64,000 nucleotides of DNA, from assembly GCA_045803545.1 (NCBI GenBank), contig JBJMOW010000004.1, positions 1,139,819 to 1,203,818 of the forward strand. The letters are read 5' to 3'. This document shows positions 2,561 through 21,978 of the stretch, piece by piece; position 1 is the first letter of the stretch; every line of letters starts with the position of its first letter. The DNA comes from Gemmatimonadaceae bacterium. Lineage in GTDB: Bacteria > Gemmatimonadota > Gemmatimonadetes > Gemmatimonadales > Gemmatimonadaceae. A program made the translations under genes and the position numbers. Under the pieces are notes generated by a model. That model saw nothing but the letters and a program-made list of their open reading frames with translations. It searched no databases and was not told the origin of the DNA.

Positions 2561-3720
2561 TCCATGACCTCTAGCAGCGCCCCCTTGATGTAACCGGTCT
2601 CCGGAATCGTCAGGATTTCCGGATGATCGAGGGGCTGACCCGTTAGCGCACGAATCGCTACACGGCGGCCGCTGTCAGTGGCGGCATCCTGGAGCATCTC
2701 CAGAAACAGTGGCTTCGTTAGATGAAAACTGCAGCTGGCCGTGTATAGCAGTCCGCCGGGACCGAGCAGCTTGATCGCGCGCATGTTCACGTCCTTGTAA
2801 CCGCGTAGCGCTCCTGTGAGCGCACCTTTCGTCTTCGCGAACGCGGGCGGATCGAGCACAATGGTGTCAAAGGTCACACCCTGCCGCTCCTTCTCGCGCA
2901 GAAAGTCGAACGCATTTGCTTCTACGAAGGAAATGTTGGTGAGCGAATTGCGCGCGGCGTTCTCCGAGGCTCTCATCAGCGCCGGAGCCGACGAATCGAG
3001 CGCAGTGACGTGCGTTGCCTTGCGCGCGAGGTGCAGCGCGAATGATCCGTGGTAACTGAAACAGTCCAGCGCGCGACCACGCGCAACCGTTCCCACAAAA
3101 TGGCGGTTCTCCCGCTGATCCAGAAACGCGCCCGTCTTCTGTCCCGTAAACGGCGCGGCGAGAAACTTTATACCGTACTCGTGAACCTCGATCTCGCGCG
3201 GGACTTCCCCGTCGAGCACGACGGTCTCGCGAGGCAGCCCTTCTTTTGCGCGCAGCGCAACGTCGTTGCGCGCGAGAATCCCCGCCGGCTCGGCGAGCGA
3301 GCGCAATGAGTTGAGGATCTCATCCCGAAATCGCTCCAGTCCCGCGCTCATGAATTGCACCACCAGCCACTGGTCGTAGCGATCGCAAATGAGCGAGGGC
3401 ACTCCATCGGCTTCTCCGTGGACCAGTCGCATCGCGTTGGTATGATCCTCGAGGGGGACGCGACGCGCGATCGCCGCGGCGATTTGCTCGTCCCACCATG
3501 CCTGGTCGATCACGGCGTCGGGATTGTGGTCCAGCATCCTCAGCGAGATCTCCGACAGCGGGCTCCATAGCGCCCAGCCAAGGGGCTTGCCGCGGTTGTC
3601 GTGAACGAGCACCGCCCCGGCATCCACCAGTGGGCGCTCTGTCACATCGCTGCGATAGATCCAGGGATGGCCGGCCTGCCACCGCCGCGCCCCCTTGGCG
3701 CTCACTCGCGCAACAGTCAT
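2557..3720 (-). CDS. rlmI: RlmI/RlmK-family class I SAM-dependent rRNA methyltransferase
   Basis: PUA-like GHPWIY, HGEADG, GQKTGAFLDQRENR, LDCFSYHGSF, LDPPAF, SCS and PETGYIK motifs. Confidence 0.9.
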   Translation of the reverse strand: MTVARVSAKGARRWQAGHPWIYRSDVTERPLVDAGAVLVHDNRGKPLGWALWSPLSEISLRMLDHNPDAVIDQAWWDEQIAAAIARRVPLEDHTNAMRLVHGEADGVPSLICDRYDQWLVVQFMSAGLERFRDEILNSLRSLAEPAGILARNDVALRAKEGLPRETVVLDGEVPREIEVHEYGIKFLAAPFTGQKTGAFLDQRENRHFVGTVARGRALDCFSYHGSFALHLARKATHVTALDSSAPALMRASENAARNSLTNISFVEANAFDFLREKERQGVTFDTIVLDPPAFAKTKGALTGALRGYKDVNMRAIKLLGPGGLLYTASCSFHLTKPLFLEMLQDAATDSGRRVAIRALTGQPLDHPEILTIPETGYIKGALLEVMD

Positions 3721-3786
3721 GTGTCAATTTATCAAACGAGGTGCGCGTCGTTTTGTGGCCGTACACTTCTTGCGAAAGGTCTACCC

Positions 3787-4578
3787 ATGCGCGAGATCGT
3801 ACCGCTTTCAGTAACCGTCGCCGCCGGCGGACTTCTCTACCGCGAGCACACCGCGCGAACCAAAGCCGAGCGACTCGCCGCGGCGACGATGGAGACGCTG
3901 CTGAATGCAATCGATGCCAACGACGAAGAGACGGGCAAGCACGTGCGCCGAGTCGCGTCTTACGCGTTGATTCTGGCCGATGCCGCCGGGCTCGACGGGC
4001 ACACGTTGCGCACCATTGAGCGCGTCGCATTGTTTCACGACATCGGGAAGCTCCACGGAGCTCTGACGGACATCTTCCACGAGGCAGCCAAGCTCACGCC
4101 GGAGGAGCGGCGAGCGGTGAAAACCCATCCGCAGCGCGGCGCAGAAGTTCTCGATCCTCTTAGCGCGTTTTATCCCGATCTGGGGGCCGGCGTCGCCGCG
4201 CACCATGAACGTTGGGACGGGAAAGGCTATCCGCGCTGTCTCAAGGGAAAGCGGATTCCGCTACAGGCACGCATCGTTACGATTGCAGACAGCTTCGACG
4301 CGATCACACATCGTCGGCGCTATAGCGCTGCGAGAAGCCTCGGTGAGGCAATAAAGGCGATTCGCGAAGGACGCGGAACGCAGTTCGAGCCCGCTCTCGT
4401 CGATCTGTTTCTGAGCAAGCCGGTAATTGCCAGGATCGAGAAGGCAATGCGTCGGGCTCACGCTCCACGACGCGTAGCTGAGAAGCGCCGTCATGGGGAA
4501 AGGGAATCAGTTCCCGATGTTACGTTTCGATGGCGGACGCGATCTCGCGGGTCGCCTGCACCGGATCCTCAGCGCTGA
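3787..4578 (+). CDS. HD-GYP domain phosphodiesterase with N-terminal hydrophobic segment
   Basis: TGKHVRRV, FHDIGK, HHERWDGKGYP, ADSFDAIT and GTQFEP. ATG at 3787 chosen because the longer ORF overlaps the divergent rlmI. Confidence 0.9.
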   Translation: MREIVPLSVTVAAGGLLYREHTARTKAERLAAATMETLLNAIDANDEETGKHVRRVASYALILADAAGLDGHTLRTIERVALFHDIGKLHGALTDIFHEAAKLTPEERRAVKTHPQRGAEVLDPLSAFYPDLGAGVAAHHERWDGKGYPRCLKGKRIPLQARIVTIADSFDAITHRRRYSAARSLGEAIKAIREGRGTQFEPALVDLFLSKPVIARIEKAMRRAHAPRRVAEKRRHGERESVPDVTFRWRTRSRGSPAPDPQR

Positions 4579-15176: not shown

Positions 15177-16928
15177 ATGTCAGCTACGCTAGACCGGCGC
15201 TCGTTCATGACCTACTTCTCCGGCGTCGGATTGACTTCAACGTTATTTCCGGGTGTGCTCTGGGCGAAGCTGGCGGGCGGCGCTGACATTACCGTCGACA
15301 CCATCGCCAGCGCCGAAGAAGTGGCGGGACTGCACTTCGATCCGCAGGAGCGCGAGTTGATGCTGGACGGATTGAAACAGCAGGAACAACGCATCGAAGC
15401 GCTGCACAAGATCCCGCTGGATAACTCCGTTAGCCCCGCAATCAAGTTCGACCCACTGCCGCCGGGCAAGTTGCTCACGCCGATGGCACACCGACCAATG
15501 CGAAGATCGAAAGTCGCGGATCGCGCAACCCCCGCGAATCTCGACGAGCTGGCGTTCCTGCCGGTGAGCGAGCTCTCTGAGCTCCTGCGGCGTCGACGTG
15601 TTACCTCGACGCAGCTGACGCAGATGTACGTTGCACGCCTCAAAAAGTACGATCCCGTTTTGCACTGCGTGATCTCTCTCACCGAGGAGCGCGCACTCAA
15701 GCAGGCTGCCGCCGCCGACGCTGAGATCAGTCGCGGCCACTACCGAGGTCCACTACACGGGATTCCGTGGGGCGCCAAGGACCTCCTCGCCGTGCGCGGC
15801 TACAAGACGACCTGGGGCGCTGGCCCATTCAAGGACCAGGTCATCGACACCGACGCCACCGTCGTCCAACGTCTCGATGATGCCGGCGCAGTTCTGATCG
15901 CCAAGCTCACGCTGGGCGAGTTGGCCCAGGGCGATATCTGGTTTGGTGCGACTACCAGGAATCCCTGGAAAGTGGATCAGGGCTCGAGCGGATCATCGGC
16001 AGGTCCAGCCTCCGCGACCGCCGCCGGCCTCGTTGGATTTTCGATCGGCAGCGAGACACTCGGCTCGATTTCGTCGCCATCAACCCGCTGCGGCACCACG
16101 GGACTCCGCCCGACCTTTGGCCGTGTTCCGCGGACGGGCGCGATGGCGCTGTCGTGGACTATGGACAAGCTCGGCCCCATTTGCCGAAGCGTGGAAGACT
16201 GCGCGTTGGTCCTGGATGCGATCTATGGCCCGGATGGAAAGGACAACACCGTCATCCCCGCCGACTATCACTGGAACGCGCACCTTTCGCCTGCCTCGCT
16301 CCGCGTTGGATACGTGAAGTCGGCTTTCGATTTGCCACAGCTCGATCCCGCGGATGCAAAGCGCACGCTGCACGCGACAAAAAACTTCGATGACCCTGCG
16401 CTGGATGTCCTGCGGCGAATGGGGATCCATCTGATTGCTGTCGATTTGCCCGACGTTCCCTACGACGCGATGCGCATCATCCTGAGCGCAGAAGCAGCCG
16501 CATCGTTCGACGAGCTCACGCGCACCGATCGCGACAAGGAGTTGGTCCAACAAGGCAAGTTCGATTGGCCGAACTCGTTCAGAACATCGCGGTTCATCCC
16601 GGCTGTCGACTATGTGAATGCCAACCGTGTGCGCACGATTGCAATTCAGAAGTGGGATGATTTAATGCGAACGGTGGACGTCATCGTGACGCCCACCGGT
16701 GCTGCTAACCTTTCTCAGCTCGTCGCGACCAATCTCACCGGACATCCAGCGGTCATCCTTCCCAATGGTTTCCGCGATGATGGTACTCCGGTCTCGCTGA
16801 CTTTCCTCGGCGGACTATTCGAGGAGGCGAAGCTGCTGGCGGTGGCGAAAGCGTATCAGGATGCCACAGGCTTTCACCTGCGGCATCCCGTCGTACCACT
16901 CACGGCGACAGAGAAAACTCCAGCTTGA
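15177..16928 (+). CDS. amidase signature family protein, Tat-type signal
   Basis: DRRSF Tat motif; GPLHGIPWGAKDL, GSSGSSAG and GSETLGSI (Lys-cisSer-Ser triad). Confidence 0.92.
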   Translation: MSATLDRRSFMTYFSGVGLTSTLFPGVLWAKLAGGADITVDTIASAEEVAGLHFDPQERELMLDGLKQQEQRIEALHKIPLDNSVSPAIKFDPLPPGKLLTPMAHRPMRRSKVADRATPANLDELAFLPVSELSELLRRRRVTSTQLTQMYVARLKKYDPVLHCVISLTEERALKQAAAADAEISRGHYRGPLHGIPWGAKDLLAVRGYKTTWGAGPFKDQVIDTDATVVQRLDDAGAVLIAKLTLGELAQGDIWFGATTRNPWKVDQGSSGSSAGPASATAAGLVGFSIGSETLGSISSPSTRCGTTGLRPTFGRVPRTGAMALSWTMDKLGPICRSVEDCALVLDAIYGPDGKDNTVIPADYHWNAHLSPASLRVGYVKSAFDLPQLDPADAKRTLHATKNFDDPALDVLRRMGIHLIAVDLPDVPYDAMRIILSAEAAASFDELTRTDRDKELVQQGKFDWPNSFRTSRFIPAVDYVNANRVRTIAIQKWDDLMRTVDVIVTPTGAANLSQLVATNLTGHPAVILPNGFRDDGTPVSLTFLGGLFEEAKLLAVAKAYQDATGFHLRHPVVPLTATEKTPA

Positions 16929-17664
16929 CGTAAGCGGCGTTATCCCGGCCGCTTGTAAAGGACGGTCCCGAGCCTCCCACCGTTTTCCATCCGCCGGCGA
17001 GCGTCGTTCTGAAATTGGGCGTCCAGCCGTACTCGAACGTCGGACCCACCTGGAACGAGTTGCTGGTATTGCCGTTGAGACCGCCGCCCTGGCCGACCAA
17101 CTCTGCGCCGATGCGGGCAGGGTGCGACCGGGAGTTGCCGAAAGGTACGGATGCGCGACCTCGCGCCCATACGTAGTGGCTGCCGAAGTTGTAGTTCGAC
17201 AGCAGCTGGGTGCGAAGCGCCCGACGCCCTGATCCGTTCGAGTAAGCGCCGAAGCTCGCGGTGGCACCGCTCTTACCACCGCTCTCTGCGCCGGGCGCGG
17301 CCGGGTTCTCGTTACTGACCCACGTGTAACCACCACCGAACGACACACCGCCGCTGCGTCCGGCGTATGCAAGCCCTACCGTGGGCGAGATCGCCTTCAG
17401 ATTCGACGTCACATCCACCGACTGAATGGGGCGATAGTGAAGCAGGTATCCGTTGACATTGAGGTACGGAGACCAGCCCAGGCCCCCCATCCCAACGTAC
17501 AGGCCCAACAGATAAAACTGGCTGTGCCTGGTATCGAGCTCAGTGGATCCGTAAAGGGTCGGATGAAGCTGGCGCGTCTGCGCTTTTGCGGCAGGCGCAA
17601 ACGCAGTCAGTCCAGTAAATGTCACCAGCGCGAGTACCGCGTTCCGATGTTTGTTCAGTTGCAT
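16900..17664 (-). CDS. outer-membrane beta-barrel protein, BcsS-like (tentative)
   Basis: Sec signal (AKA|Q), alternating aromatic/Gly beta strands, IGAELVGQG...FQVGPTFEY and terminal AYVKLEF strand. BcsS resemblance judged by eye. Confidence 0.55.
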   Translation of the reverse strand: MQLNKHRNAVLALVTFTGLTAFAPAAKAQTRQLHPTLYGSTELDTRHSQFYLLGLYVGMGGLGWSPYLNVNGYLLHYRPIQSVDVTSNLKAISPTVGLAYAGRSGGVSFGGGYTWVSNENPAAPGAESGGKSGATASFGAYSNGSGRRALRTQLLSNYNFGSHYVWARGRASVPFGNSRSHPARIGAELVGQGGGLNGNTSNSFQVGPTFEYGWTPNFRTTLAGGWKTVGGSGPSFTSGRDNAAYVKLEFSLSP

Positions 17665-17875
17665 ATTCTTCTCTCGGTTTAGTGGTGCCTTCGGCTCACT
17701 GCATCGCCAGTTTTCGAGAATTTCTCGTCGGCCGGAAGCGTCACAGCATCTGTGCATGAGCCCGGGTACGGGTATGCCAGATTCGTACCTTTGCTGGCTT
17801 TTTTTCCCCGCTGCCGCCTTACAATTTGCCGGTGGCGAAGCGTCGAAAGCGTTGCCAGATAATCACCTAGGCAGG

Positions 17876-17891
17876 CGGCAGAATTCCTGCA
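17876..17891 (+). promoter_or_regulatory. possible sigma54 -24/-12 promoter of the DUF3131 gene
   Basis: cGGCAGAATTCCTGCA has GG-N10-GC spacing about 35 bp upstream of the ATG; partial consensus only. Confidence 0.3.
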
Positions 17892-17925
17892 TCGCGAGGC
17901 ACCACACGTAGTCCACTACCTGACA

Positions 17926-19269
17926 ATGCGATTCCAAAGCCTTGCTTGCAGCCTCGTATTGATTGGTTTGGTCGCCTCAGCGAGCACCGCCGAGGCCCAA
18001 AGCAAATCCAAGAAAAAGGCGACGCGCACGACCAGAACAACTACCAGAAAGCCGGCGCCGGAGCCGGTACCCGCGCGCATCGACTCGACGCTGGCTACTT
18101 CGCCAATCGCCGCAGCTGCCGTCGCCGACGAGCGCCAGCTCTTCATGAACGCCGCGCGCGGCGCGTGGGCATTCGTCGAGCGGAATTACCAGTCGTCAAC
18201 CGGCCTCGCTCGGGCTCACGACACTTATCAGTACGTCACGTTGTGGGACGTCGCGAGCGCACTTGCCGCTACTTACTCCGCGCACGAGCTCGGCATGATC
18301 TCCGATGCACCGTTCAATCAGAGGATGCAGCGCGCCCTGGCCACACTGGGCTCCATGGACCTCTTCGACGGGGCGGCGTTCAACAAATCGTATGATTCCC
18401 GGACTGGCCGGATGATCGATCGCGAACAGCGTCTTTCTTCGAAAGGATATGGATGGTCTACGACGGATATCGGCAGGCTGTTGATCTGGCTGCGCATCAT
18501 CGCCGTGAATCAGCCCCAGTTCGCGCAGCAAACGACTGCAATCGTCCGACGTCTCAACGTGCCGCGGATGATCGCCAACGGTTATCTGCAGGGGAGCGAT
18601 CTCGATCCGCAGACGGGCCAGCTTCGCGTTTATCCGGAGGGTCGCATCGGATACGAGCAGTACGCCGCCGCCGGTCTCGCACTCTGGGGGTACCGCGCCG
18701 ATAAAGCGCTCGACGCCAGTTTGAATGCGCTGCCCGTCAACGTGCTCGGCGTTTCAATCGTCGCCGATAAGCGCGGCGACGAGAGAGTCACCAGCGAGCC
18801 GTACATTATGATGGGGATGGAGACCGGCTGGTATTCGCCGGAACTTCGCGAGCAGGCCTGGCGCGTACTCGCGGCACAGGAAGCACGTTACAGGAGCACG
18901 GGCACACTGACCATGGTGAGCGAGGACGCCCTCCCTGATCCGCCATACTATTTCTATTACTACAACGTGTATCGACAGGGACGTGCGTTCACAGTGGACG
19001 CGCCGGCAGGATCAGGCTATACGGATCGGCCGCGCTGGCTTAGCTCAAAGGCCGCGTACGCATGGCATGCGCTTTTGCCGAGTCCGTACACCCTTGCCGT
19101 AGTGCAGGCCGTCCAGGGCGCGATGATGCCCGGACGTGGTTGGGGCGCTGGAGTCTACGAGGGCACGCTGCGGCCAACTGGGGACGCGAGTCTGAACACT
19201 GCCGCGCTGATCCTCGAGGCGGCATGCTACAACCTGCGGGGCCATCCATTCCTGAGGACCAACCTCTAG
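17926..19269 (+). CDS. DUF3131 family secreted protein (putative (alpha/alpha)6 beta-glucan-active enzyme)
   Basis: AWAFVERNYQSSTGL, TLWDVAS, FNKSYD, GWSTTDIGRLLIWL, GRIGYEQYAA, TSEPY and NTAALILE match my recollection of DUF3131; signal peptide present. Confidence 0.8.
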   Translation: MRFQSLACSLVLIGLVASASTAEAQSKSKKKATRTTRTTTRKPAPEPVPARIDSTLATSPIAAAAVADERQLFMNAARGAWAFVERNYQSSTGLARAHDTYQYVTLWDVASALAATYSAHELGMISDAPFNQRMQRALATLGSMDLFDGAAFNKSYDSRTGRMIDREQRLSSKGYGWSTTDIGRLLIWLRIIAVNQPQFAQQTTAIVRRLNVPRMIANGYLQGSDLDPQTGQLRVYPEGRIGYEQYAAAGLALWGYRADKALDASLNALPVNVLGVSIVADKRGDERVTSEPYIMMGMETGWYSPELREQAWRVLAAQEARYRSTGTLTMVSEDALPDPPYYFYYYNVYRQGRAFTVDAPAGSGYTDRPRWLSSKAAYAWHALLPSPYTLAVVQAVQGAMMPGRGWGAGVYEGTLRPTGDASLNTAALILEAACYNLRGHPFLRTNL

Positions 19270-19290
19270 ATGATCCTACCCGACAAGAAC

Positions 19291-19326
19291 AAAAAAACGC
19301 CGGAGCGACTCGCTCCGGCGTTTTTT
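19291..19326. terminator. bidirectional intrinsic terminator
   Basis: A7-cgccggagcga-c-tcgctccggcg-T6 between convergent genes. Confidence 0.9.
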
Positions 19327-19340
19327 CCCGTGTCGTAATT

Positions 19341-20441
19341 CTATAGGACGCTGCGCTGTGCCAGGCCGAGTGCGTAATCAGCCATCCACGAGCCAGCGCT
19401 CGGCGCACCGTTGCACGACCCGTCCGACTCACCGGGCGCCTTGACCCACAGATAGGCATCAACGAGCGGATCGGCGGTGAACGTCGTCGACGCCGTACCA
19501 AGACCGCGGCCAGCCGGATTGCACCATGCATTGTCTGCGGTTGGTCCCAAGCCGTTGCGGCTCGTGTCGATGATGAAATGCTTTCCGCCGATCAACGCTG
19601 AAATCGCCTTGCCATAACTGATCGCACTCGACGTGTACTGGAAGTTCGACACGTTGACGAAGAAACCATCAGCGGCGCCGACGCTCGCTCTCGCGAGGAG
19701 CGACGCCTGTTCGCTTGCCGACTTCCACGCCGAGTGGCCGCCGTCGAGATAGACAACGGCTCCGTTGGCTTTGAGAACTGCGATCGCGTACTGAAGAAGA
19801 TTGGTTCGCGTTGTCTGATCCGTGCTGCTAAGGCAGCCGATCTGAGTGACTGCGTCCGGTTCGAGGACGATGACCGCGTGACTGGTTCCGAGCGCCGTCG
19901 CGAACGCGGAGATCCACGTCTTGTAGCCGTCGGCCGTAGTGCCACCAGCGGAATAACCTCCGCAATCACGCTGCGGAATGTTGTAGGCGACGAAGACCGG
20001 CCGGGCTCCGGTGCCAGCAACTGTCGCAACGGCCTTGGCGACGGCTGTCCCGATGTCTCCGCTCCAACCGCCGAACCACTGCGCCTGCGAGTTCTGCGCG
20101 ATCTTGTCCATCTGCGCTGCGTCCGCAGGGCGCGTCGTCCGCCAGGAATCGGCTGTCTGCTTTGCGTTCGAGTATGGGTTCACCCAGAACGAAACCCCGC
20201 TGATCGGGTTCGTGCCGACCGGAATCGGTGGCGGCGCCGGATCGGTGATCGGAGGTGGAGGAGGAGTGGTGCTCCCACCTTTCTTGTGCCTGGCGTCGGC
20301 CGTTCCGTCTGGCGAGATTGCGTCGCCAGCGCATGCGGCAAGTGAGACGATCGCGCTTGCCACGAGAACATAGCGCAGGAGATTTTCGGACCAGCGACCA
20401 GAGGCGCGCCGGTGTCCCAGTGCAACTTGTGATACTGCCAT
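19341..20441 (-). CDS. glycoside hydrolase family 6 (endoglucanase-type) lipoprotein
   Basis: Lipobox SLAAC, Pro-rich linker, YNIPQRDCGG, VLEPDA, DTSRNG, WCNPAGRGLG and WVKAPGESDGSC. Confidence 0.93.
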   Translation of the reverse strand: MAVSQVALGHRRASGRWSENLLRYVLVASAIVSLAACAGDAISPDGTADARHKKGGSTTPPPPPITDPAPPPIPVGTNPISGVSFWVNPYSNAKQTADSWRTTRPADAAQMDKIAQNSQAQWFGGWSGDIGTAVAKAVATVAGTGARPVFVAYNIPQRDCGGYSAGGTTADGYKTWISAFATALGTSHAVIVLEPDAVTQIGCLSSTDQTTRTNLLQYAIAVLKANGAVVYLDGGHSAWKSASEQASLLARASVGAADGFFVNVSNFQYTSSAISYGKAISALIGGKHFIIDTSRNGLGPTADNAWCNPAGRGLGTASTTFTADPLVDAYLWVKAPGESDGSCNGAPSAGSWMADYALGLAQRSVL

Positions 20442-20456
20442 TTTTTTTTCTCTCTC

Positions 20457-20548
20457 TTCGGAAGCGCGTCCGGCCTGACTGACCACGGTCAGCGTTAGCC
20501 ACGGAGCTTTGCGTCTCCACTTTTCAGTGGATTTGCCCTTAAACGGAG
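20457..20548 (-). ncRNA. c-di-GMP-I (GEMM-I) riboswitch aptamer
   Basis: AAGGGCAAA-UCCACU-GAAA-AGUGGA-GACGCAAAGC-UCCGU-GGCUAA...AGGCC-GG-ACG-CGCUUCCGA aligns with the Vc2-type consensus (GNRA tetraloop, GACGCAAAGC core, CUAA receptor). Confidence 0.88.
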
Positions 20549-20598
20549 ATCATCCGCGAGCACTAGAAAGCCGTGCTCCGGACAGTGAACGAGGGGCA

Positions 20599-20627
20599 AC
20601 TATACGGCCGTATGTCCACTGTGTCAA
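20599..20627 (-). promoter_or_regulatory. sigma70 promoter driving the riboswitch-GH6 transcript
   Basis: TTGACA (20627-20622), 17-bp spacer, TATAGT (20604-20599). Confidence 0.8.
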
Positions 20628-20814
20628 TCAAATTTTTACCGTGGCGGAACGCGTTGTGCCATAGGCAGTTACACTGCTGAGCTAGAGCGCAAAACAACCT
20701 CATCAGCGCCAGGTGTTCACTACGGGTGACAAAGGGTTCGGACACCTGGACGGGCGGCTAGCTGTCGTCTCTGGGTTTACCTTTTTCGCGTCTATGAAGC
20801 GAACGGAGCGTGAG

Positions 20815-21186
20815 ATGACGGGCAGCAGTGTCAGTTTTTATCGCTGGAACGACATGAAGAAAGAGCGCGTGAGCGACATGCTTGAACGTCGACTGATCAC
20901 CGGCGATCGCATGATGCTCGCTCATGTCTATCTGAGAAAAGGCTGCATCGTCCCCAAGCACTCGCACGAAAACGAGCAGCTCACGTACATTCTCGAGGGT
21001 GCGCTCAAGTTCTGGATCGGTGAAGATCAGAAAGAGGAAGTCATTGTTCGCGCTGGCGAAGTTCTGCTGATTCCCTCGCGCGTTCCCCACAAGGCTGAAG
21101 CTCTCGAAGAAACCCTCGATGTCGATGTGTTCAGTCCCCCGCGCCAGGATTGGCTTGCCAAGACCGACGACTATCTGAGGCGCTGA
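20815..21186 (+). CDS. cupin domain protein
   Basis: VPKHSHENEQLTYILEG...IPSRVPH...DVFSPPR; GGAG RBS before ATG 20815. Confidence 0.9.
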   Translation: MTGSSVSFYRWNDMKKERVSDMLERRLITGDRMMLAHVYLRKGCIVPKHSHENEQLTYILEGALKFWIGEDQKEEVIVRAGEVLLIPSRVPHKAEALEETLDVDVFSPPRQDWLAKTDDYLRR

Positions 21187-21978
21187 GTGGACCTCGGACT
21201 TCGCGGCAAGATCGCCATCGTCGCCGCCAGCAGTAAGGGACTCGGCCGCGCCATCGCCGAGGAGCTTGCTGCCGAAGGAGCGAACCTGGTTATGTGTGCG
21301 CGCGGCGAAGATGCGTTGCGGGAAACCGCCGATTCCGTCCGCAAAACCTTTGGTGTGGACGTGGTGGAAATCGCCGCGGACGTCTCGCAGCAATCCGGCA
21401 TCGATCTCGTTGCAAAGACAGCGCTCGATGCGTTCGGCAGAGTAGACGTTCTCGTAACGAACTCCGGCGGCCCACCAAGCGGAAGCTTCGACAGCTTGAC
21501 ACCGGAATCGTGGGAAAGTGCAACCCGTCTCCTGTTGTACAGCGCGGTCGGTTTGACCCGGGCCGTGCTGCCCGGGATGAAGGAGCGCCGCTGGGGACGC
21601 ATTCTCAACGTCACGTCCATCGCGGTGAAGCAACCCATCGATGGTTTAATGCTTTCGAACAGTCTGCGCGCTGCTGTGACGGGGTTCGCGCGAACGCTCG
21701 CAAACGAAGTGGCGTCGTTCAACATCACAGTGAACAACCTCATGCCTGGCTACACGCGTACTGATCGCGTGGAGCAGCTCGCACGCGCGAGCAGCGAAAA
21801 GACCGGTGCTTCTCTCAAGGAGTCGTACGCGCGTTGGGAGAAGGAAATTCCGATGGGTCGACTTGGCGAACCGCGCGAATTCGCCGCACTCGCCGCGTTC
21901 CTCGCCTCGGAGCGGGCCAGTTACATCACCGGCAGCTCTATCGCCGTCGACGGTGGGTGGATCCGCGCCCTGATCTAA
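21187..21978 (+). CDS. SDR family oxidoreductase
   Basis: AASSKGLG, NSGGPP, SNSLRAA (atypical active site) and YITGSSIAVDGG. Confidence 0.92.
   Translation: MDLGLRGKIAIVAASSKGLGRAIAEELAAEGANLVMCARGEDALRETADSVRKTFGVDVVEIAADVSQQSGIDLVAKTALDAFGRVDVLVTNSGGPPSGSFDSLTPESWESATRLLLYSAVGLTRAVLPGMKERRWGRILNVTSIAVKQPIDGLMLSNSLRAAVTGFARTLANEVASFNITVNNLMPGYTRTDRVEQLARASSEKTGASLKESYARWEKEIPMGRLGEPREFAALAAFLASERASYITGSSIAVDGGWIRALI

Follow-up and report, generated by a model that had tools for sequence, protein, structure and literature searches.

The DNA analysed here (the window) is a 64,000-nucleotide stretch of contig JBJMOW010000004.1 from a Gemmatimonadaceae bacterium (assembly GCA_045803545.1, positions 1,139,819 to 1,203,818). 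On its minus strand lies a gene of glycoside hydrolase family 6 (GH6) whose leader carries an aptamer of the c-di-GMP-I (GEMM-I) riboswitch class. The features of the locus are as follows.

16900..17757, minus strand: putative BcsS-like outer-membrane beta-barrel gene, a lead (atlas score 0.97; 14% of the cluster carries PF17036)
17926..19269, plus strand: DUF3131 gene, found beside GH6 and synthase genes in relatives
19291..19327, minus strand: intrinsic terminator separating the GH6 gene from the convergent DUF3131 gene
19341..20441, minus strand: GH6 endoglucanase-type gene, 366 aa (PF01341, 1.5e-62, 212.6 bits)
20442..20449, minus strand: A8 spacer before the AUG, matched gap-free by an independent contig
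20450..20460, minus strand: P1 3' strand and GAGAGAG purine run (-15 to -9)
20457..20547, minus strand: c-di-GMP-I (GEMM-I) aptamer, RF01051, with a GAAA tetraloop in P2
20461, minus strand: C92-equivalent, a C (Rfam alignment)
20537, minus strand: G20-equivalent, a G (Rfam alignment)
20544..20549, minus strand: P1 5' strand UCUC-CG, of which UCUC is the anti-SD-like part
20552..20583, minus strand: 5' leader hairpin directly before P1 (predicted fold, 11 pairs and a one-base bulge)
20599..20627, minus strand: sigma70-type promoter TTGACA-17-TATAGT (11/12 matches)

The window also holds an HD-GYP-type phosphodiesterase gene (3571-4575, plus strand), some 15 kb from the GH6 gene.

The GH6 product has a signal peptide, a lipobox (LAAC, with Cys37 assigned by motif), a Pro-rich linker and a catalytic domain, and is predicted to be a membrane-anchored cellulase. 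The catalytic domain contains RDC, EPD and ESDG motifs with D159, D196 and D340, whose aspartates we take to be the catalytic residues of the family. A Pfam search found no carbohydrate-binding module (CBM). The nearest solved relatives are bacterial endoglucanases and mycobacterial CelA1, the latter (PDB 1UOZ/1UP0) being the closest structure by sequence (E 1e-69); the best GTDB relatives are titled Gemmatimonadaceae. The source genome carries a second GH6 gene, and its leader is without an aptamer.

The promoter is the single such site in 18500-21500, where 0.6 would be expected by chance, and it places the probable start of transcription near 20592. The RF01051 match is full length (model positions 1-87) and scores 65.1 bits against a gathering score of 35 (E 1.8e-10, with the whole window as search space); apart from tRNAs, no other Rfam match in the window reaches its gathering score. 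The covariance search thus bears out the GEMM-I assignment that a sequence-only reading of this DNA had made by consensus, and each minus-strand element named in that reading was found where it had been placed. Its gagcac/gtgctc stem is part of the larger hairpin at 20552-20583; a hairpin of differing sequence occupies the same position in most orthologous leaders, as judged by eye. The hairpin loop (CUUUCU) was not seen to act as an anti-SD in optimal, pseudoknot-free folds. In the Rfam alignment the pocket positions and helices of the aptamer are all intact, and the GAAA loop is present; the P3 receptor strands read UAAC/CAG against the consensus UAAg/uAu. We take C44, A47 and G83 to correspond to 20513, 20510 and 20470, and on that numbering the A47 intercalator and the C44-G83 pair are both present. 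J1/2 is one base longer than the length that we assume for Vibrio cholerae Vc2.

The aptamer ends 18 bases before the GH6 start codon. P1 in the bound state covers -19/-18 and -15 to -12, and the best-spaced Shine-Dalgarno (SD) core is the GAG at -11 to -9. SD spacing for the genome came from crude start sets, which give a broad range only, and the anti-SD was read from the end of the genome's 16S. The SD of this copy is weak (3 bp), so ribosomes may depend on the A run to initiate. The earlier nomination of the P1 3' strand as ribosome-binding site needs refinement: in the bound state the strand covers CG(AA)GAGA as far as -12 and does not take in the whole GAAGAGAGAG. An upstream GTG start (20486) was rejected; it lies inside the aptamer, and the starts of orthologs support the AUG at 20441. 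Independent sequence for 20378-20572 comes from a soil RNA-library run, one contig of which agrees except for a single mismatch in a loop. Because this contig spans the GA repeat and the A8 run without gaps, an assembly error in either was rejected; the contig confirms sequence, not transcription. Fifteen public RNA runs yielded small shares of words only (0.05-0.16), and the four runs compared are all contigs, which carry no start site, strand or level and were not used as evidence of expression.

No terminator-like site was found between promoter and AUG, which includes the interval from aptamer to start for which its absence had been claimed, and transcriptional termination control was rejected for this reason. 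A leader lacking a terminator, in which P1 overlaps the SD region, supports translational rather than terminator control, as had been proposed.

We consider c-di-GMP the likely ligand. The two guanines of c-di-GMP are read by G20 and C92 in Vc2 (PMC6140456), and the presence of G20 in the window aptamer favours this ligand. Position 20 is a G (20537) and not the A of GEMM-Ib aptamers. Motif searches of the source genome gave five canonical GGDEF hits and six for HD-GYP. None of the nine GGDEF matches in this 93%-complete genome is of the Hypr type, for which we assume the signature GHxxGS. Published S347D constructs (PMC6456294) are consistent with that signature. That 3'3'-cGAMP is the natural ligand we regard as extremely improbable: A20-type aptamers do occur in the source genome and its order, and Hypr-type GGDEFs (GHxxGS) in three genomes of a sister family, but the window aptamer has G20, wild-type Vc2 (also G20) discriminates against cGAMP (PMC6140456), and no Hypr signature was found in the source genome. 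The sequence-only argument from G20 to c-di-GMP therefore holds. As an observation in its own right, GHxxGS GGDEFs were present in 3 of the 30 loci examined (L231, L233 and L235, of G039, G041 and G059), with GHxxGN in three more, which suggests cGAMP signalling in the sister family; none was found in the source genome (G000).

The pairing of aptamer and GH6 is conserved. GH6 is present in 29 of 109 genus genomes, and RF01051 lies directly upstream of it in 12 of 25 ortholog loci (from 24 genomes; the locus of the unpublished genome G074 was left out). The closest ortholog (88% identity) is among the 13 loci without an aptamer. A profile built from our own hits found five aptamers among 80 related GTDB loci, two of them repeating genus loci already counted; the three further GH6 leaders are L015, L063 and L077, the last before a second GH6. 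Five other GH6 loci that were scanned (L204-L207 and L176) have none. On the GH6 protein tree the aptamer occupies several deep branches with gaps between them, a distribution that we interpret as an ancient link lost several times; gains and losses were judged by eye, the group test being confined to aptamer-bearing versus core-deleted rows. In one three-genome clade (L187, L191 and L195, of G128, G127 and G085) the GH6 leader has a deleted aptamer core but keeps the 5' hairpin and the 5' P1 strand, which now run directly into the purine run or the start.

More widely, RF01051 exceeds its cut-off in 66 of 101 sampled genomes of the phylum, and the source genome holds five copies. L005 (G000:C4:539828-539910, minus strand) and about 20 other hits are A20-type, cGAMP-like GEMM aptamers that overlap hairpins resembling terminators, ahead of genes for Ig-repeat (Big_2) surface proteins; these look like transcriptional ON switches. 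One genome has two triple-tandem A20-type arrays (L136, G039:C3:4761-5163; L137, G039:C36:1983-2385). G20 aptamers precede subtilase-PKD and Big_2 lipoproteins at L001, L086, L088-L091, L093 and L094, where an upstream CUCC-rich hairpin complements an SD 8-12 bases past the aptamer. At L002 (G000:C4:547489-548527) a genus-conserved aptamer with clear P1/SD overlap stands before a protein with a receiver and a degenerate GGDEF domain. Shorter variants with GCAC for GCAA (44-53 bits) were seen at L160, L162, L166 and L170-L174, mostly before lipoprotein genes.

The direction of switching was examined across the family. G94 precedes the AUG by 10-18 bases in the 14 GH6 leaders analysed, and the pyrimidine-rich P1 5' strand tracks the purine run before the start codon (UCUC/GAGA, UCCU/AGGA, ACCU/AGGU). 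L077, which is outside the 14-leader counts, has a contiguous 7-bp P1 stem over GAGGUG. In a 14-row MAFFT alignment 89% of cells are paired, against 80% for shuffles and 31-45% for slid controls. P2 and P3 are paired in 97.6% and 93.6% of cells, with two-sided change at 9 of 16 pairs. In the P1 extension 78.6% of cells pair and two-sided change occurs at 4/4 pairs, a count inflated by register shifts; such shifts also cause the P1 core to be paired in just 50% of cells. Cognate P1 strands pair better than swapped ones (56/5000 permutations for the 14 GH6 leaders; 517/5000 for 32 other short leaders; 1/5000 for all 46), in a comparison where two rows, L196 and L122, were mis-anchored.

In a three-state folding model run with three truncations, binding made the SD harder to open in 11, 10 and 11 of the 14 GH6 leaders; among 24 REC/DUF882 leaders the counts were 17, 15 and 19. 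Comparison of the bound state with a fully free ensemble gave a weaker contrast (8-10 of the 14), and for L190 no P1 core could be set. The aptamer-bearing loci are kin and not independent. Ligand-bound P1 thus covers the SD across orthologs in 10-11 of 14 leaders, which supports, in the model, an OFF polarity for the GH6 leader family; the nearest aptamer-bearing relatives of the window copy (L182, L184 and L188) model as OFF, and OFF is also predicted for the L015 leader. A different layout was seen in eight same-genus leaders of DUF882/M15 peptidase genes (L100, L104, L119, L121-L123, L126 and L135), in which J1/2 is U-rich and P1 lacks an anti-SD. These model as ON, the SD being easier to open when bound in 5-6 of the eight, and paralogous genes carry the OFF layout.

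The window copy is one of the exceptions to the family pattern in the folding model. Its bound P1 pairs UCUC with -15 to -12 and leaves the GAG at -11 to -9 mostly open. Opening this GAG costs 0.3-0.6 kcal/mol in the bound state versus 0.8-2.6 unbound, and opening -13 to +3 costs 1.5-1.6 versus 2.9-3.2 kcal/mol. The order is reversed for the whole GAGAGAG (-15 to -9; 3.4-3.5 kcal/mol bound versus 1.0-3.2 unbound), and over -15 to +3 and -17 to +13 the two states differ by less than 1 kcal/mol. The P1 duplex is no better than those formed with shuffled 5' strands (19% are as good). The GAGAGAG repeat allows a second P1 register, and the modelled polarity of this copy is equivocal. The proposal that the ligand sequesters the ribosome-binding site is thus supported for the family and left in doubt for the window copy, where the best-spaced GAG is freer when bound. 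Published cases indicate that polarity cannot be extrapolated from one riboswitch to another (PMC6366702). For the window copy we nonetheless give OFF switching slightly better than an even chance: the family pattern points that way, and a rigid aptamer lying against so short an SD (3 bp) would be expected to hinder the 30S subunit.

Two other behaviours of the leader were weighed against this. The ligand might instead act as an ON signal by moving P1 four bases upstream, freeing the GAG, the A8 run and the AUG; in ligand-free RNA, UCUC would pair with the downstream GAGA (-11 to -8), or the P1 5' strand would pair across the AUG, and the glucanase would be produced alongside the polymer to assist its export, in the manner of Streptomyces coelicolor CslZ. 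An unconstrained fold does pair UCUC with -11 to -8 and G19/G20 with C92/C93, inclusion of more coding sequence brings the P1 5' strand into pairing across the AUG, and the bound state leaves -11 to +3 almost free (0.6 kcal/mol). The eight DUF882 leaders described above provide a same-genus precedent in the model, and CslZ is needed for glycan deposition (PMC9040799). However, energy differences of 1-2 kcal/mol fall within the error of the model, the closest relatives with an aptamer (L182, L184 and L188) model as OFF, and the hindrance expected from a bound aptamer abutting the SD applies here too; we consider such a slip unlikely. An equally doubtful extension is that expansion of the GA repeat flipped an ancestral OFF switch to ON by the four-base slide. 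It would yield orthologous switches of opposite polarity, in a cellulose system lacking BcsB and BcsZ where c-di-GMP acts both on a PilZ synthase and on a GH6 lipoprotein through a platform-less riboswitch.

Alternatively, the aptamer may bind c-di-GMP with little change in translation, as a leaky or decaying switch or one that acts on RNA stability, which Vc2 also controls (bioRxiv 617340). The near-equal opening energies of the wider intervals would fit this, as would the repeated loss of the aptamer among orthologs, including the clean core deletion in a three-genome clade, and the finding that no more than 11 of the 16 c-di-GMP riboswitches of C. difficile function (PMC6366702). Against it, the pocket and helices are all intact, and the bound state lies about 4.6-4.7 kcal/mol above the pre-folded unbound state, a cost that ligand binding could pay. 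We rate a switch of so little effect as quite unlikely.

The likely substrate of the enzyme is indicated by its genomic company. A GT2 synthase with TED and QRLRW motifs and a PilZ domain is encoded on another contig of the source genome. PilZ-bearing synthases occur in 25 of the 29 GH6-bearing genus genomes versus 1 of 80 without GH6 (24 of 28 versus 1 of 80 minus G074), counts that overstate independence since the genomes are kin. Of the four GH6 genomes without a synthase match, two have a completeness of 54-63%, and a third has stops in GH6. This last condition is seen in G003, where the GH6 gene (G003:C75:29051-29887) has two TAG stops and no synthase match was found. In several synthase matches a TGA stop falls inside the alignment, perhaps before the real start codon. 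Of 80 related loci, 6 hold GH6, DUF3131 and synthase genes as a cluster. The barrel protein of the window has no Pfam hit; its tblastn relative in L042 hits PF17036 at 1.4e-6. DUF3131 and the BcsS-like barrel travel with GH6 and the PilZ synthase (window 16900-19269; G000:C4:740703-743165). The 93%-complete genome yielded no GH8, GH9 or BcsB, and a single marginal GH5.

The enzyme has the marks of an accessory glucanase: an envelope anchor (by lipobox motif), no CBM, and co-occurrence with a glucan synthase. From the co-occurrence, the clustering, the DUF3131 and barrel neighbours and the lack of GH8 and GH9 hits, we infer that the enzyme is probably a BcsZ/CslZ-like accessory for the cell's own cellulose-like glucan and not a foraging cellulase. 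Against a cellulose-like polymer count the position of the synthase on another contig of the source genome and the failure to find BcsB. The DUF3131, barrel, GH6 and PilZ-synthase set may possibly constitute an undescribed glucan synthase module. The alternative, that the switch operates as described and the enzyme forages on plant material in soil, draws on GH6 being a classical cellulase family and on the distance between the GH6 and synthase genes in the source genome, where they are not adjacent. A forager lacking a CBM, in a genome with one marginal GH5 and neither GH9 nor GH8, and so nearly exclusive in its co-occurrence and clustering with the synthase, seems to us very improbable. The role in dispersal suggested by the sequence-only reading fits a link to the cell's own synthase; glucanases of this kind can also help polymer export, as CslZ does (PMC9040799).

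The elements of this arrangement have precedents. Vc2 (RF01051) shares the full-length match, the G20/C92 pocket and the absence of a terminator; it has been described as a translational OFF switch (bioRxiv 617340) and, in a 2025 review, as ON (PMC12564702). A separate downstream anti-RBS element has been proposed for Vc2, whereas in the window copy P1 itself overlaps the purine run with no further platform, and the target, unlike that of Vc2, is a glucanase. Geobacter GEMM-Ib cGAMP riboswitches have the same fold and clan but A20 and terminator action, in contrast to the G20 and terminator-less leader here. CslZ, likened by description, is likewise a GH6 lipoprotein without a CBM, tied to a cellulose-synthase-like gene (PMC9040799). 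Salmonella BcsZ (GH8) is synthase-linked and lowers cellulose and biofilm (PMC5070118); it belongs to another family and is encoded inside bcsABZC, whereas the window GH6 is served by a promoter and riboswitch of its own, in a genome where neither GH8 nor BcsB was found. Overexpression of CelA1 reduces pellicle biofilm, and the portions of that report available to us describe no riboswitch control (PMC7952908).

The riboswitch class, translational OFF switching and synthase-linked glucanases are therefore known, and the aptamer itself is ordinary. Its conserved GH6 target, and its occurrence in this phylum, appear to be undescribed. Searches of literature listings and abstracts, a scope outside most subscription papers, found no description of a c-di-GMP riboswitch in Gemmatimonadota, in agreement with the sequence-only reading; databases may list hits automatically. 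The main text of PMC5473149 does not name the phylum, and its supplement may list phylum counts. Nor did listings and abstracts pair a c-di-GMP riboswitch with a cellulase, GH6 or cellulose synthase.

Taken as a whole, we lean towards a circuit in which c-di-GMP binds the aptamer, P1 closes over the ribosome-binding region, and translation of a GH6 lipoprotein that trims the cell's own glucan is lowered. At high c-di-GMP the synthase would be switched on through PilZ and the glucanase turned down through the riboswitch; at low c-di-GMP the glucanase would be released to thin or shed the coat. If this is true, riboswitch control of a synthase-associated glucanase would be a second c-di-GMP handle on the cellulose coat besides PilZ. 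With 66 of 101 sampled genomes above the aptamer cut-off, the work also gives a way into c-di-GMP signalling in a phylum that is abundant in soil and largely uncultured. The leaders of the orthologs, whether intact, core-deleted, lost or possibly slipped, offer a natural series for the evolution of polarity in a switch of about 150 nt.
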